A stretch of 64,000 nt of DNA from an uncultured Candidatus Saccharibacteria bacterium (GCA_964501135.1 CAZCRI010000004.1:47238-111237), one strand, 5' to 3'; positions 5,030 to 50,042 are shown, counted from the stretch's first letter. Translations and numbers: made by a program. The notes: generated by a model not told the origin, from the letters alone.

Positions 5030-6108
5030 TTTGCTACCTCCCGAATCTTCTTCTCGATCTCTTCTGCTGTAATCCCCTCGGCGGGTTTGTAGAGCCGGAC
5101 ATATTCTGCGTCTGTACTCTGGGCTAGGGTTTCTCGAACAATCCGCCCAAAATGACCCGCACTACTCTCGGCAATAATAATATATTTTGCCTTAGCAACA
5201 GCCTTTATGGCTGCGGAGCTATCAAAAGGACGCATAGTAATTGGTCTAAAGAGCCCTACTTTGAGTTTGTCTTTTCTTGCCTTCGCCACCGCAACTTTCG
5301 CTGCATACCCCACCGAACCCCAGGCAAACACTACCACTTCCGCATCCTTTGTCTGGTAGCTTTCGGACTCAACAATCTCTTTACTTGCCTCAGAGAATTC
5401 CTTGAACATAAAATTCAAATGCTCCACAAGCTCTTCTTCCATCGAAAAACAGTTTCGCATATTCTTGATCGGACCGTTAAGAAAATAAGGCGTCGATTTT
5501 ACCTTCGGCAGCTTTGCAGAAACATCTACCGGAGCTTGCATCTTGGAAAGATAACCATCCCCGAGGACAATTACCGGAAAACGATACTTCCAAGCCGTCT
5601 CGAAAGCTTTATGCATATAGGTGTACATCTCTGCGAGTGTTGAAGGCGCATATACAATACGCAACCCCTCTCCGTTACCACCAAAACGAGCCAAAGTAAG
5701 CTCTTGCTGAGAATAAATAACAGTCCCCGTCGATGGTCCACCACGCTGACCAACATACATCACAAAAGGCAATCTGTAAGACTCCGCTACCGCAAGCGGG
5801 TCTTGCATCAAGACATGACCAATTCCTGCTGTTGCTGTCCATGCCTTTTTACCGGCAAGAAGGGCACCAATGACCGCAAAGCCAGAGGCAATTTCATCTT
5901 CCATCTGCATAAACTCAAGCTTGTTATCTTTGGCAGCAGCATTTGCCCAGCCAGTTAGAACCTCTGTGGTCGGCGTTATTGGATAACCGGCAAAAAAATC
6001 CGCTCCAGCAGCATAGGCCCCACGTAGCAAAACATCATTTCCAGCAAGAAGCTCCTTCTTACCTTTTATTGTTGCCACTTTTGATTTTTCTAGATTTGTT
6101 TTAGCCAA
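5026..6108 (-). CDS. porA: 2-oxoacid (probably pyruvate):ferredoxin oxidoreductase alpha subunit
   Basis: 360 aa; typical PorA/VorA architecture; operon position. Confidence 0.85.
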   Translation of the reverse strand: MAKTNLEKSKVATIKGKKELLAGNDVLLRGAYAAGADFFAGYPITPTTEVLTGWANAAAKDNKLEFMQMEDEIASGFAVIGALLAGKKAWTATAGIGHVLMQDPLAVAESYRLPFVMYVGQRGGPSTGTVIYSQQELTLARFGGNGEGLRIVYAPSTLAEMYTYMHKAFETAWKYRFPVIVLGDGYLSKMQAPVDVSAKLPKVKSTPYFLNGPIKNMRNCFSMEEELVEHLNFMFKEFSEASKEIVESESYQTKDAEVVVFAWGSVGYAAKVAVAKARKDKLKVGLFRPITMRPFDSSAAIKAVAKAKYIIIAESSAGHFGRIVRETLAQSTDAEYVRLYKPAEGITAEEIEKKIREVAK

Positions 6109-35309: not shown

Positions 35310-35376
35310 GTATATATATTAGAACCGGAGTGGAAAATTGTCCACTCGTAAGTATAAATAGATTATAAACGGCGAA

Positions 35377-35405
35377 GGGCCCGAAACCTTGGCGGTTTCG
35401 GGCCC
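35377..35405 (-). terminator. GC-rich perfect hairpin (12-bp stem), probable terminator of the high-GC island gene
   Basis: gggcccgaaacc-ttggc-ggtttcgggccc, 10 nt downstream of the stop at 35416. Confidence 0.5.
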
Positions 35406-35415
35406 TCACAGAAAG

Positions 35416-36012
35416 CTAGTACGGGATGCCGTAGTTCTTGAGGCAATCCTTGATGCGCTGGGTGAGCAGGTTCTGCTCCCTCAAGCGGGCGACGCCGTCC
35501 TCGGGGAACGTGCCGCTCTCAATCATGTCGAGAGTCAACTCCTCGACGAGCTTGAGACTCGGCGTTCCGAGGTCTTCGGTGACTCGTTCGGCACAGTAAC
35601 CGAAACCGCCGTGATGCTGAACCTCGCGGACGACCTTGATAGCGTCCCACGGAGCCCACACCTCGCTGACCTCACCCTCGGCGACCGGCTCGAAGCCGAT
35701 GCGCATTCCGAGAGTCAGCTCGAAACCTTCCTCGTCACCGTTGTGTACGGGGTGGTCGAGGTCGATGCGGACGAAGTCGGTGCCGGAAACCGGCCAACCG
35801 CCACCCTGGGCGCTGACCTTGTGGTTCTTGAAGGCTCGATCGATAACCCAGTAGAACCCGTGCTTGCCGTGTCCCTCATAGTTGAGGAGTCGGCCGAAGA
35901 TGATGTCGGCCTCCCGGACATGTTCGACGAACTTATCCTCAACCTTCACCTTCTTGGGCTGTGGAACCTTGACGGTCTGTAATACCTCTACCCGCAAGTG
36001 CATCGGCTGCAT
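35416..36012 (-). CDS. Hypothetical protein encoded on a high-GC island (no family assignment)
   Basis: GC-rich ORF with an SD (GAGAGGGGAAG) upstream of the Met of MQPMHLRVEV (36012); the ORF track extends to 36066. The plus-strand ORF 35389..35982 is an Ala/Leu/Asp-rich antisense artefact. Confidence 0.55.
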   Translation of the reverse strand: MQPMHLRVEVLQTVKVPQPKKVKVEDKFVEHVREADIIFGRLLNYEGHGKHGFYWVIDRAFKNHKVSAQGGGWPVSGTDFVRIDLDHPVHNGDEEGFELTLGMRIGFEPVAEGEVSEVWAPWDAIKVVREVQHHGGFGYCAERVTEDLGTPSLKLVEELTLDMIESGTFPEDGVARLREQNLLTQRIKDCLKNYGIPY

Positions 36013-36134
36013 TGCTTCCCCTCTCGCTGTAGGTGTCTTTCTGCATTCGCTGACTGACGATGTCAATCCACGAACACCCGATTATACAAGTATTTATATC
36101 AAAAGTCAAGGTCTTTTACACCTCTGCCTTGTAG

Positions 36135-45298: not shown

Positions 45299-45374
45299 GC
45301 GGGTATCGTATAATGGTTTATTATGCGACCCTTCCAAGGTCGAGATAAGGGTTCGATTCCCTTTACCCGCTCCA
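45299..45374 (+). tRNA. tRNA-Gly (anticodon UCC)
   Basis: GCGGGTATCGTATAATGG...CGACCCTTCCAAGGTCG...GGGTTCGATTCCCTTTACCCGCTCCA; loop CTTCCAA. Confidence 0.85.
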
Positions 45375-45377
45375 TTT

Positions 45378-45455
45378 GCGCCCGTAGCTCAGTTGGATTA
45401 GAGCGTGTGGTTTCGGCCCACAAGGCCGGGGGTTCGAGCCCCTCCGGGCGCACCA
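45378..45455 (+). tRNA. tRNA-Arg (anticodon UCG)
   Basis: GCGCCCGTAGCTCAGTTGGATTAGAGCGTGTGGTTTCGGCCCACAAGGCCGGGGGTTCGAGCCCCTCCGGGCGCACCA; stem TGTGG/CCACA; loop TTTCGGC. Confidence 0.8.
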
Positions 45456-45469
45456 AAAAGTTTGGACAT

Positions 45470-45546
45470 GGTGACTGTAGCTCAGCTGGTAGAGCTCCGG
45501 TTTGTGGTACCGGCGGTCGCGGGTTCGAGCCCCGTCAGTCACCCCA
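45470..45546 (+). tRNA. tRNA-His (anticodon GUG) with encoded G-1 and C73 discriminator
   Basis: G-GTGACTGTAGCTCAGCTGGTAGAGCTCCGGTTTGTGGTACCGGCGGTCGCGGGTTCGAGCCCCGTCAGTCACCCCA; loop TTGTGGT. Confidence 0.85.
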
Positions 45547-46840: not shown

Positions 46841-48367
46841 CTACTTGGCGTACTCGATTGCCCTAGTTTCACGGATTACGTTTACCTTGATCTGGCCTGG
46901 GTATTTGAGATCTGCCTCAATCTTTGTCGCTACATCCTTGGCAAGCTTGAGAGCCGTAAGGTCATCAATCTTTTCTGGAGTAACAAAGACACGAACTTCA
47001 CGTCCGGCCTGAATAGCGTATACTTTTTCGACGCCATCAAAGCCTTTGGCAATATTTTCGAGCTCAGTAAGACGCTTGATGTAGTTGTCGAGAGAGTCAC
47101 GACGAACACCAGGGCGTCCGGCAGAAATAGCATCGGAAACCTGGATAATAACTGCTTCTACAGTGTGGAAAGGAACTTCCTCGTGGTGAGCTTCAACGGC
47201 ATGGATAATTTCGTCGCTCATTCCGAATTTCTTACAAATATCGCGTGAAATGCTAGCGTGTGAACCTTCGATATCCTGGTCCACTGCCTTACCGATGTCG
47301 TGCAAGAGTCCAGCCTTCTTAGCAATTGCGACGTCGGCACCAAGCTCTGAAGCTAGTGCGCTCGCAAGCAATGCTGTCTCCACAGAGTGCTGCAATACAT
47401 TCTGAGAAAACGAAGTACGGAACTTTAGACGACCAAGAAGCTTGATCATCTCGGCAGGTAAGCCAGCAACGCCAGCTTCGTAAACAGCCTTTTCGCCGGC
47501 TTCCTTGATTTGTTTGTCAATCTCTTCCTGAGCCTTGAGAACCGCTTCCTCGATCTTGGTAGGATGGATACGACCGTCCTTGATTAGTTTCTCTAGAGCA
47601 ACTTTGGCGACATTACGACGCACTGGGTCGAAACCAGAGATTACGATCATTCCTGGAGTATCGTCGACGATAATGTCACAGCCAGTTGCCCGTTCAATAG
47701 CCTGAATATTGCGACCCTCACGTCCAATGATGCGACCCTTGATCTCGTCATTTGGAAGCGCCACAGCAGTAACGGTGCTCTCTGCAGTCTGCTCACCAGC
47801 AACACGCTGAATAGCAGTTACGAGAATCTCTCGTGCTTTTGTATCGGCCTCTTCTTTGGTCTCGCGCTCAATCTTGCTGATAAAGCTGACGATATCCTTG
47901 CGGTATTCCTTCTCCACCATCTGCATCAACTTCTCTTTGGCGTCTTCTTTGTTCAACTTGGCTATCTTCTCGAGCGCTTCCTGCTGACGTACACGAAGAT
48001 CGCGAAGATCGGTCTTGACGGCTTCGATATCTGCCTTGGCCTTATCGATGTCATCACGTTTCTTATCGAGTTCATCACTTTTCTTATCTAGAGTCTCTTC
48101 ACGTTGTGCAACACGACGTTCCTGAGCGGTAAGCTGATCTCTGCGCTCTCGCTCTTCTTTCTTTGCTGTGTCAGCAATCTTTAGAGCCTCATCCTTGGCG
48201 TCAAGGATTATCTCTTTGGCTTTTGTTTCTGCTTCGGCAATCTTTTTCTCTGCCTTGCCTTCTGCATTCTGGACGTCCTTGGCCATCTGAGTCTTGCGAT
48301 ATGTATAACCGCCGAAACCACCAACGCCAAGAGCTACTACAGCAAATACGATGCTTAGTAATTCCAT
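46841..48367 (-). CDS. rny: Ribonuclease Y
   Basis: 508 aa; N-terminal TM, coiled-coil, KH domain (GREGRNIQAIE), HD domain (LLHDIGK). Confidence 0.95.
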   Translation of the reverse strand: MELLSIVFAVVALGVGGFGGYTYRKTQMAKDVQNAEGKAEKKIAEAETKAKEIILDAKDEALKIADTAKKEERERRDQLTAQERRVAQREETLDKKSDELDKKRDDIDKAKADIEAVKTDLRDLRVRQQEALEKIAKLNKEDAKEKLMQMVEKEYRKDIVSFISKIERETKEEADTKAREILVTAIQRVAGEQTAESTVTAVALPNDEIKGRIIGREGRNIQAIERATGCDIIVDDTPGMIVISGFDPVRRNVAKVALEKLIKDGRIHPTKIEEAVLKAQEEIDKQIKEAGEKAVYEAGVAGLPAEMIKLLGRLKFRTSFSQNVLQHSVETALLASALASELGADVAIAKKAGLLHDIGKAVDQDIEGSHASISRDICKKFGMSDEIIHAVEAHHEEVPFHTVEAVIIQVSDAISAGRPGVRRDSLDNYIKRLTELENIAKGFDGVEKVYAIQAGREVRVFVTPEKIDDLTALKLAKDVATKIEADLKYPGQIKVNVIRETRAIEYAK

Positions 48368-48605
48368 ACTTTCTCCTTCCTTCCCTGAATATCAGGTGCT
48401 TTTCATAAAAGCTGACACGCTAGCCGTCTTCTAGAAGATTCCGCAAACTATGCGGGCTTTCTATTCGATTGAGTACATCTTTTCTAAGATTGTTTATGTG
48501 TAAAGTGAAAATTTGTAATTTAAGGCCAGGAATGTCAACTAGTTTGTTTACTAATTTACATCGCTATTATACGACTTTTGGCACCTTTTAGCAAATGAGA
48601 TTTTC

Positions 48606-48660
48606 CAGTAAAAAGAAACAACGGCCGCGACCCGCTGTTCCTCAGAACAGGGATCACGAC
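48606..48660 (-). terminator. Long GC-rich imperfect hairpin followed by a U-rich tract on the minus transcript; probable terminator of the island-2 gene
   Basis: Minus-sense GGUCGUGAUCCCUGUUCUGAGGAACAGCGGGUCGCGGCC then GUUGUUUCUUUUU; 12 nt after the stop at 48672. Confidence 0.45.
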
Positions 48661-48671
48661 CGTTCGTGTAG

Positions 48672-48983
48672 TTATCGCTTGGACCAGTGGCCCTCGAACT
48701 TCCCTCCGTTGACCTCGCAGTAGTGTGACTCCGCGGCACTTTTGGCCGTGGGCATGTACGGCTCCACTGCATCCAGCAGCGGGCCGTCAAAGTCCCCGAT
48801 GTGAACCTGGTACTGCATCCTGTCCTTCTCGTCCCTGACGGGGATCCCATCGTCAGTGTAGAGCTTCTCGACGTAGTACAGAATGTTCCCTTCTTCGTCG
48901 ACCAGCTTGGCATCGCGTGAGTTGATCCAGACCCATTGGAGCTTGCGCCCTGATATCCGGATGTTGTTCTGGCTAGCAGCCAA
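48672..48983 (-). CDS. Hypothetical small protein encoded on high-GC island 2 (no family assignment)
   Basis: 103 aa; TTG start preceded by consensus SD AAGGAGGTG with 5-nt spacer. The overlapping 146-aa ORF (48551..48991) is a Ser/Thr/Arg-rich out-of-frame artefact. Confidence 0.6.
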   Translation of the reverse strand: MAASQNNIRISGRKLQWVWINSRDAKLVDEEGNILYYVEKLYTDDGIPVRDEKDRMQYQVHIGDFDGPLLDAVEPYMPTAKSAAESHYCEVNGGKFEGHWSKR

Positions 48984-49164
48984 CCTGACACCTCCTTATG
49001 GTCTTTGTCTCAGCTCCCGCCAAGATTTAACAAACAGGACAATTCCGTATATCACAGGCCATCGCACCAGACCCTTGGGCGGTGCGACAAGCTCGAGATT
49101 CCTGGACCTTCGACGTGCAGACTGTACAAACCCGCTCGGGGTACGATCTGCCATATGGCAACAC

Positions 49165-49581
49165 CTACCCCTTCGGTTTCGGTTGTGTAATGTGAGGTTC
49201 AGCACCATAGTGCGGTACTACTACCCCTTCAAATGATGCGCCACGTGATTCTAGCACGGTTTTTCCTTTTTGTAAAAGCTTATCGGTGTCTGTTTCGTCT
49301 GCAACCCCCGCTATCGGGATGTCATATGTATAGGCAATAGTATTGGCCACCGAGAGACCGATGCGCAAACCAGTAAATGACCCCGGGCCAGCGTTCACAA
49401 TAATGCCAGTTATCCCCTTATTTAAAGCGTTATTATCCGTAGTAGGTAATACAGTTTGAAGTTTTTGTATAATAAGTTTATTCAATTCTCGACCAGCGAC
49501 AAAAGCCTCTTTTGCGAACCATTTTTGGTCCCAAAGACCAATAAACGCGTTTTCGCTAGCGGTATCGAACACTAAGACCAT
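49165..49581 (-). CDS. tsaB: tRNA threonylcarbamoyladenosine biosynthesis protein TsaB (YeaZ), unusually short
   Basis: 138 aa; MVLVFDTASENAFIGL and GPGSFTGLRIGLSVANTIAY motifs; typical TsaB is longer, and the 3' end abuts the high-GC island. Confidence 0.75.
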   Translation of the reverse strand: MVLVFDTASENAFIGLWDQKWFAKEAFVAGRELNKLIIQKLQTVLPTTDNNALNKGITGIIVNAGPGSFTGLRIGLSVANTIAYTYDIPIAGVADETDTDKLLQKGKTVLESRGASFEGVVVPHYGAEPHITQPKPKG

Positions 49582-50042
49582 TCGGCACCTACTTTCGAGA
49601 AAGTAATTACCCTGTTGTCATCATCGGTATAAGAAAAATTCACCAGGTAGTGGTTCTTGCTCGCAAGTATCGTCATATTCTCTGGCCATTCGATAACCGT
49701 GATGTCTAGCGGTGACGTGACGTATTCCTCGATCTGAGACTGAATCTCTCGGTCTTCATGAGTTCTGTAGAGGTCAAGATGATGCAGAGTAAAGGTCTTC
49801 CCCTGATAAGTCCGCTCAATTGTGAAAGTCGGACTCACCACGGTCTCGGAAATTCCCAGTGCTTTGGCGATACCCTTGGTAAACTGAGTTTTACCACCGC
49901 CAAGCTCCCCGGTAAGTAATACTAGGTCGCCACCTTTAAGGGTGATTCCTAGCTCTTCCCCGAGCTTAGTCGTTTCGGTGGCGGATTTTGTCGTATAATT
50001 TGCTCGCATAACCTCTATTCTCCCAGAGATTATACCCGACAA
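49572..50042 (-). CDS. tsaE: tRNA threonylcarbamoyladenosine biosynthesis ATPase TsaE (YjeE)
   Basis: 156 aa; P-loop GELGGGKTQFTKGIAKALGI, SPTFTI motif. Confidence 0.85.
   Translation of the reverse strand: MSGIISGRIEVMRANYTTKSATETTKLGEELGITLKGGDLVLLTGELGGGKTQFTKGIAKALGISETVVSPTFTIERTYQGKTFTLHHLDLYRTHEDREIQSQIEEYVTSPLDITVIEWPENMTILASKNHYLVNFSYTDDDNRVITFSKVGAEWS

Follow-up and report, generated by a model that had tools for sequence, protein, structure and literature searches.

How did a short GC-rich gene come to lie between two housekeeping genes of an ultra-small bacterium, and how much of the surrounding DNA came with it? The question is raised by the interval between tsaB and rny in a 64,000-nt stretch of DNA from an uncultured Candidatus Saccharibacteria bacterium (GCA_964501135.1, CAZCRI010000004.1:47238-111237), referred to here as the window. 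The original prediction interpreted the GC-rich DNA at 48590-49250 as an island of about 660 bp with a structured leader, which encoded a 103-aa protein and may have replaced the 3' end of tsaB. Our analysis points to a smaller event. The operon has the order tsaE, tsaB, sORF1, orf103, terminator, and we consider it likely that orf103, the gene for the 103-aa protein, is horizontally acquired cargo from a GC-richer pool, situated at a recombination hotspot and expressed by operon read-through and coupling to the small gene sORF1.

The GC content of 48590-49250 (661 nt) is 54.6%, compared with a window mean of 45.4% (standard deviation 0.029 as a fraction; z 3.18 against windows of the same length). 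In 200-nt windows the GC fraction is 0.535-0.58 over 48600-49199 and 0.50 in the last one (49100-49299), and the flanks of the GC-rich stretch are at 0.35-0.43. The sliding windows and the z-score thus bear out the predicted excursion, at about 48600..49230 between AT-rich flanks. A comparable level is reached elsewhere in the window only at about 35.3-36.0 kb (island 1). Another local GC peak, near 45.3-45.8 kb, corresponds to three tRNA genes (Gly-TCC, Arg-TCG and His-GTG; 45299-45546, plus strand) and is no island.

When the window is compared by blastn with its closest relative, locus L005, homology stops at 49005 and restarts at 48604. The segment 48605..49004 (minus strand) has no counterpart in L005: 400 bp in the window face 712 unrelated bp in the relative, and the flanks around this unrelated cargo are 87% and 96% identical. 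Foreign-looking DNA is therefore present as predicted, but it spans about 400 bp with a single gene instead of 660 bp, and the variable foreign part appears to be essentially orf103 itself.

The gene orf103 (48672..48983, minus strand) starts with TTG, encodes 103 aa and is the sole cargo gene of the window. Its Shine-Dalgarno (SD) sequence, AAGGAGGTG, can be read at 48989..48997 (minus strand), 5 nt upstream of the start, so that the gene, its start codon and its SD spacing are as originally described. The GC content at third codon positions (GC3) of orf103 is 0.79, against a mean of 0.45 (standard deviation 0.066) for 60 open reading frames (ORFs) of the window, a z of about +5. This host set was a greedy selection of 60 non-overlapping window ORFs of at least 80 aa; since an overlapping 146-aa ORF displaces orf103, the gene is absent from the set and its GC3 was computed separately. 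Two members of the set were flagged, the ORF at 35416-36066 (0.77) and a probably spurious 82-aa ORF (0.61). In relative synonymous codon usage (RSCU), orf103 shows a negative correlation with the host genes (r = -0.34). GC3, RSCU and regional GC (z 3.2) all show the deviation expected of an acquired islet.

An exhaustive HMMER search over 1.84 billion representatives, together with a profile search of 5.8 billion clusters, delimits a family of four members: the window protein, P0002 (61% identity, locus L043), P0005 (49%, L054) and P0003 (31%). There are 30 invariant columns in the first, three-sequence alignment and 24 when all four members are included. Using three sequences as input, AlphaFold2 produced a model with a mean predicted local distance difference test (pLDDT) score of 89 and a predicted template modelling (pTM) score of 0.80, in which six beta-strands come first, then a helix spanning residues 77-91, and one more strand at the end. 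With homologues at 31-61% identity and this pLDDT, orf103 is a real gene of an orphan family. The predicted protein is soluble, with a pI of 5.3, and its N-terminus has no hydrophobic stretch pointing to a signal peptide.

Searches for relatives of known kind gave no matches for orf103 in Pfam, PHROGs, NCBIfam or PADLOC, nothing meaningful in the PDB by sequence profile (best E 0.098) or Foldseek (best E 0.15) or in BFVD (best E 0.043), nothing significant in INPHARED, IMG/VR or PLSDB, and no record in an exact-sequence look-up. The homology check proposed along with the original prediction thus yielded three homologues only, and neither by sequence nor by fold was a known protein family matched. 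Our guess would be a non-essential accessory protein with a binding or modulator role; we lean this way because the family is tiny, its turnover is rapid and it keeps company with other small orphans.

The tsaB-rny spacer was followed through related genomes with an RNase Y probe, which retrieved 42 genome loci and 38 metagenome loci, the close ones being metagenome-assembled genomes (MAGs) of Candidatus Saccharibacteria or Patescibacteria; L043 was added by exact look-up of an orf103 homologue. Close relatives, all of them such MAGs, keep the order tsaE-tsaB-(x)-rny, and the comparison is based on 23 loci with tsaB and rny arranged as in the window. Based on RNase Y identity, the window (WIN), L005, L001, L002/L051 and L050 form its own clade (clade A), L054, L043, L003/L057, L052, L053 and L055/L056 form a sister clade (clade B), and L004, L037 and L058-L063 are more distant.

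Across the 23 loci the spacer measures 180-2251 bp, with 27-31% GC when bare and 42-52% when filled, and it occurs in three states. In the simplest, tsaB is directly followed by the rny promoter (180-190 bp); in the second, sORF1 and a terminator are present (424-461 bp); in the third, sORF1 is followed by one to about six small genes and then the terminator (797-2251 bp). The window belongs to the third state, with orf103 as its one cargo gene. Cargo genes are co-oriented, are separated by gaps of about 4-70 nt or overlap, and are in most cases preceded by a strong SD, frequently GGGAGGTGA. Cargo GC3 is higher than that of the host rny and tsaB genes in each of the seven cargo-bearing loci compared (in the window, 0.79 against 0.38-0.47). 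The synteny comparison proposed for the rny-tsaB interval therefore turned out in favor of an acquired segment: the closest relative lacks the segment, the content of the spacer varies, and orf103 is patchily present between conserved syntenic flanks, in 3 of the 23 loci.

The cargo is also mosaic. The orf103 family occurs in WIN, L043 and L054, a family designated MSTDD in L002 and L043, and a Cys-rich family in L001 and L054; none of the other cargo families is found in the window outside the tsaB-rny locus. Pairwise identities of orf103 (WIN-L043 61.8%, L043-L054 55.4%) rank in reverse to those of RNase Y (84.8% and 93.9%), an incongruence that, in these three taxa only, is suggestive of exchange. 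Although Saccharibacteria genomes are extremely reduced, this one retains a small hotspot where GC3-rich orphans turn over within a housekeeping operon.

Small Cys-rich cargo proteins of 57-61 aa are encoded at L054 4139-4324, L001 ~5558-5735 and L045 1797-1970. Those of L001 and L054 have a C-x2-C...C-x-C...C spacing and form one family, and the 57-aa protein of L045 is unrelated; in L054 as well as in L045, a Cys-rich ORF has an orf103-family gene as its immediate neighbour. The fourth family member, P0003, is encoded at another locus, in a GC3-rich islet (GC3 0.69-0.83) between relA and recJ, which have host-like GC3. Besides P0003, this islet (L044-L048, e.g. L045 351-2210) contains orphan ORFs that are 257, 57 and 70 aa long; its downstream content differs between contigs.

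These data are consistent with the following course of events. The spacer between tsaB and rny would gain and lose genes in this lineage. DNA of a related genome would be taken up, and orf103 would most likely enter by homologous recombination through the conserved flanks, that is, tsaB/sORF1 on one side and the terminator with the rny promoter on the other; the ultimate source of the gene would be a GC-richer gene pool. orf103 seems to have no promoter of its own and may be transcribed by read-through from the tsaE-tsaB-sORF1 operon, since the site lies inside the operon ahead of its terminator. An internal promoter-like site at 49276-49248 offers an alternative, although it is located among conserved codons of tsaB and could be incidental. 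Translation of orf103 would be coupled to that of sORF1 through the perfect SD sequence (48997-48989), which overlaps the sORF1 stop codon (TAA, 48998-48996), and the transcript would end at the resident operon terminator. The predicted product is the soluble beta-sheet-plus-helix protein of the four-member family.

Several observations weigh against this account. No donor was found, and the 5.8 billion clusters contain no homologue beyond four Saccharibacteria-type contexts. Gene tables and Pfam assignments revealed no mobility gene or tRNA at the insertion, nor is it marked by a flanking repeat; no repeat of at least 12 nt connects the island with any other part of the window. In all three loci that carry orf103 at the tsaB-rny site it is the last gene before the terminator, and its copies are about as diverged (48-62% identity) as those of TsaB (58-69%); because of this fixed position and TsaB-like divergence, some room is left for old vertical residence with repeated loss. 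Finally, both transcription and translation of orf103 are predicted from sequence only.

The upstream flank of the hotspot is formed by tsaE and tsaB. tsaE (49572..50009, minus strand; Pfam TsaE, E 4.4e-33) is the first gene of the operon. The mechanically called ORF begins with TTG at 50042; the ATG at 50009 fits the relatives, as the L005 orthologue has the equivalent Met. A consensus promoter scan places a promoter-like TTGGCA-18-TATAAT ahead of tsaE (50058-50029, minus strand). tsaB (49165..49581, minus strand) is intact and encodes 138 aa, as predicted, comprising the N-terminal subdomain only. The protein scores 73.4 bits against TIGR03725 (T6A_YeaZ), above the curated cutoff of 69.3, and covers profile positions 1-91 of 212; its residues 2-94 align with 3-93 of E. 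coli TsaB (4wq4_C). Like canonical TsaB/YeaZ (TIGR03725; E. coli 4wq4_C, 231 aa), it has the N-terminal subdomain with GPGSFTGLRIG and a tsaE neighbour. In contrast to the canonical protein, it is only about 138 aa long and, judged by the profile and the 4wq4_C alignment, lacks the two-subdomain architecture of about 212-231 aa.

The short TsaB had been tentatively explained by an insertion that replaced the 3' end of the gene, its last codons running into the island boundary. Across all 23 related loci, nine of which have a bare spacer of 180-190 bp, TsaB measures 131-144 aa and ends in the same C-terminal motif, ...EPHITxPKxKG (...HYGAEPHITQPKPKG in the window, L005 and L001). Relatives also conserve the 3' end of tsaB and the ~160 nt that come after it. 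The orthologues are equally short, with no C-terminal domain missing or replaced in the window alone. Because the length is the same at all 23 loci, island-free ones included, it is unrelated to the GC-rich segment. Short TsaB is therefore a lineage-wide feature, naturally one-subdomain and not truncated, which raises the question of how synthesis of N6-threonylcarbamoyladenosine (t6A) is supported.

The region between tsaB and orf103, predicted to be a non-coding leader of about 215 nt, contains sORF1 (48996..49154, minus strand). This ORF begins 10 nt past the tsaB stop codon and encodes the 52-aa protein MADRTPSGFVQSARRRSRNLELVAPPKGLVRWPVIYGIVLFVKSWRELRQRP (pI 11.9), in which a basic N-terminus (MADRTPSGFVQSARRRSRNLE) is followed by a hydrophobic segment. 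The 160 nt downstream of tsaB are 87% identical to L005 and 75% to L001 at the nucleotide level. Twelve related loci (L005, L001, L002/L051, L052, L054, L003/L057, L050, L053 and probably L043) carry orthologues, among them every relative with a filled spacer. The orthologues are 52-65 aa long and all have a basic N-terminus, the pattern R-x-P-x-G...R-R...N-L-E and then a hydrophobic stretch, recognisable even at low identity (L003, L050, L053). In pairs with enough changes, substitutions are most frequent at codon position 3, followed by positions 1 and 2 (31, 16 and 13 for WIN versus L002). The GC3 of sORF1 is host-like (0.49), and the high GC content of this stretch is due to codon positions 1 and 2, i.e., to an Arg/Pro/Gly/Ala-rich composition. 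From its conservation and coding pattern, sORF1 is a native, conserved small gene for a small membrane-type protein, rather than a leader or RNA element.

Folding and Rfam searches of this region, as proposed for the supposed leader, did not recover an RNA element. At gathering scores over the whole window Rfam matched only tRNAs outside this region, and a permissive search of 48400-49400 gave only noise (E 4.8); the region folds no better than its shuffles (z -1.55), and the RNAalifold covariation term is +0.31, giving no support. Together with the coding substitution pattern, these results rule out a structured leader RNA or riboswitch. The stem-loop tcgcacc...ggtgcga noted earlier does exist, but it lies within the sORF1 codons for VAPPKGLVR, has no fold or covariation support and is not kept in L001 or L002. 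A separate hairpin of 6-7 bp near the 3' end of sORF1 (window ~49012-49029; alignment columns 150-167) can pair in both sORF1 sequence types (CUUGGC/GCUGAG versus UCCGGC/GCCGGA); the alignment is doubtful there, and the pairing may be coincidence.

The operon ends in an intrinsic terminator downstream of orf103 (48610..48664, minus strand), with a 20-bp stem followed by GUUUCUUUUU. Its GC-rich hairpin (48620-48664) has a folding free energy of -34.5 kcal/mol (z -5.08 versus shuffles), and stable hairpin, U-tract and position at the end of the transcription unit all agree with Rho-independent termination. The predicted GC hairpin with U-tract is thus real, although it begins 8 nt after the orf103 stop and not 12. 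Its assignment to a cassette as a GC-clamp component, in contrast, does not agree with its conservation in relatives that carry other cargo: L001 has the hairpin at 88% identity, and after quite different cargo in L002, L052 and L054 the same outer stem and tail (AACGGTCG...CGGCCGTTGTTYTTT) are seen again. In relatives with sORF1 only, a hairpin directly follows the sORF1 stop codon. The hairpin after orf103 is thus the resident terminator of the tsaE-tsaB-sORF1(-cargo) operon and no part of a cassette.

In L005 (5505-5745), about 240 additional bp lie right after the terminator, with a 9-bp direct repeat, GGGTCGCGG, at their ends. It looks as though the terminator 3' arm had been split by a small element or by illegitimate recombination.

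Three misreadings are thereby corrected: tsaB as an essential gene cut short, the sORF1 region as a structured leader RNA, and the operon's hairpin as the terminator of a cassette. Two additions take their place: the conserved, unannotated small gene sORF1, and a four-member orphan family with a confidently predicted fold that has no structural neighbour.

How orf103 came to occupy the spacer can be explained in other ways. It may be an old, vertically inherited resident that was lost or replaced in most descendants, with its high GC3 maintained locally, for example by GC-biased gene conversion at a recombination hotspot or by selection on the mRNA. In WIN, L043 and L054 alike, the gene occupies the last place ahead of the terminator, and its divergence is comparable with that of TsaB; both points agree with this view, and so does the GC3 enrichment of every cargo gene in every relative, even in a host of 39% GC, which fits a local process and a common pool equally well. 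We nevertheless regard old residence as unlikely, as orf103 is present in only one of five clade A and two of nine clade B loci, the three-taxon identities are incongruent with RNase Y, and the fourth member sits at the relA-recJ locus within another GC3-rich islet. Moreover, the GC3 of the window gene (0.79) exceeds that of its homologues (0.60-0.71), the opposite of shared slow amelioration. The model of the original prediction, a ~660-bp island with a structured leader that replaced the tsaB 3' end, can appeal to the raised GC across 48600-49230 and to a tsaB shorter than canonical TsaB. It is refuted by island-free relatives with a short TsaB of the same C-terminus, by the conserved coding ORF with host-like GC3 in place of the leader, and by the missing RNA support (no Rfam match, fold z -1.55, covariation +0.31), and we give it hardly any credence. 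An assembly chimera or contamination as the source of the GC-rich segment is conceivable, given a MAG-type assembly and a foreign composition. The native sequence on both sides in one operon, the functional overlap of SD and stop codon, the resident terminator, and the homologous cargo at the same site in independent assemblies (L043, L054) make the probability of such an artefact negligible.

A different type of explanation assigns a specialized mechanism to the site. In one version, the spacer is an integron-like cassette-capture site where promoterless, SD-equipped genes are inserted singly by a site-specific recombinase encoded elsewhere. A co-oriented, promoterless array of small unrelated genes between a fixed first gene and a fixed terminator, and the reassortment of single genes between genomes, are what such a site would produce. 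Yet the cargo genes overlap or are only about 4-70 nt apart, too close for attC-type sites to fit, and apart from the SD no inverted repeat or junction motif was seen to be conserved. Pfam assignments for about ±6 kb around the site in L043 and for the five nearest genes in the window include no integrase or recombinase, and islands 1 and 2 have no common repeats; we find this version highly improbable. In another version, the spacer would be a dedicated capture-and-expression site that uses an unrecognised, attC-independent mechanism to stack promoterless, SD-equipped small genes between the fixed gene for a small membrane protein and the fixed terminator. Its cargo, the orf103 fold family included, would act in epibiont-host or anti-defence interactions and would come from a GC-rich external pool, for instance the Actinobacteria on which these epibionts live or the phages of those hosts. 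We think that this, too, is quite improbable.

Chromosomal hotspots of horizontal gene transfer (HGT) and genomic islets flanked by core genes are a general concept. The tsaB-rny site resembles them in its core flanks (tsaB, rny), variable accessory content, deviant composition and mostly orphan cargo. It differs in its very small size, with one to about six genes encoding 50-220 aa each, in lacking mobility genes, and in its location inside an operon, between the last resident gene and the terminator. Mobility signatures, such as an integrase, a tRNA target or flanking direct repeats, are common in islands and not required for islets; none was found at the site. HGT and genomic islands have already been documented in Patescibacteria (PMC12455944).

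Two other known systems offer partial parallels. Like phage morons or packed early genes, the cargo consists of small, tightly arranged, co-oriented orphans with strong SDs and a deviant composition that reassort in a mosaic manner. Morons typically have their own promoter and terminator; the tsaB-rny cargo has neither, and there is no prophage context. The 50,697 phage records searched, IMG/VR and BFVD contained no homologue. For a phage or plasmid origin, neither tblastn against INPHARED and PLSDB nor IMG/VR scans that used orf103, the island-1 protein and three further cargo proteins as queries returned relatives. As with integron cassettes, small unrelated ORFs that lack promoters form an array read from a promoter upstream of it, and they are reshuffled in a cassette-like way. 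In contrast to integrons, there is no attC, attI or IntI nearby and the gaps are too short. No attC or other conserved junction motif follows the ORFs, the gene table of L043 lists MshEN/T2SSE, QueA, LTD, TsaE, TsaB, RNase Y, YmdB and HU without an intI or attI, and the five genes scanned in the window gave TsaE, TsaB (TsaD family), RNase Y and LTD and no intI. The tsaB-rny islet is thus an ordinary gene-gain hotspot of a known kind and not a new class of element. Slightly unusual are the insertion inside an operon before its terminator, the GC3-rich cargo across relatives and the orf103 fold without a structural neighbour. The site is a convenient, well-delimited place for studying gene gain and expression in ultra-small epibionts.

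Island 1, the other outlier in GC content, contains a 216-aa ORF (35416-36066, minus strand; GC3 0.77) in a stretch of 60-64% GC, annotated publicly as 198 aa (P0004), and a hairpin at 35376-35406. The sole match of its protein in the 5.8 billion clusters is itself, no family was matched, and a single-sequence AlphaFold2 model is unusable (pLDDT 37). The likeness that had been claimed between the two islands is evident in that both consist of a high-GC3 orphan (0.79 and 0.77) followed by a GC hairpin. A common donor, by contrast, finds no support: codon usage of orf103 and the island-1 ORF is only moderately correlated (RSCU r = 0.47), and within the window the two islands have no sequence, repeats or junction motifs in common.

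The downstream flank of the hotspot is rny (46841..48367, minus strand), which encodes RNase Y (Pfam RNase_Y_N, KH and HD) and is 63-99% identical in relatives. A consensus scan places its promoter-like TTGCTA-17-TATAAT at 48566..48594 (minus strand), directly after the terminator, and this box is conserved in relatives, including the island-free ones. About 200 nt of the rny leader region (48368-48610, minus strand) are conserved across relatives, with a second AAACTAGTTGACA box ~25 nt downstream of TTGCTA-17-TATAAT and a conserved small hairpin, CCGCAAACTATGCGG (48440-48456); this region could serve as a regulatory leader for RNase Y.

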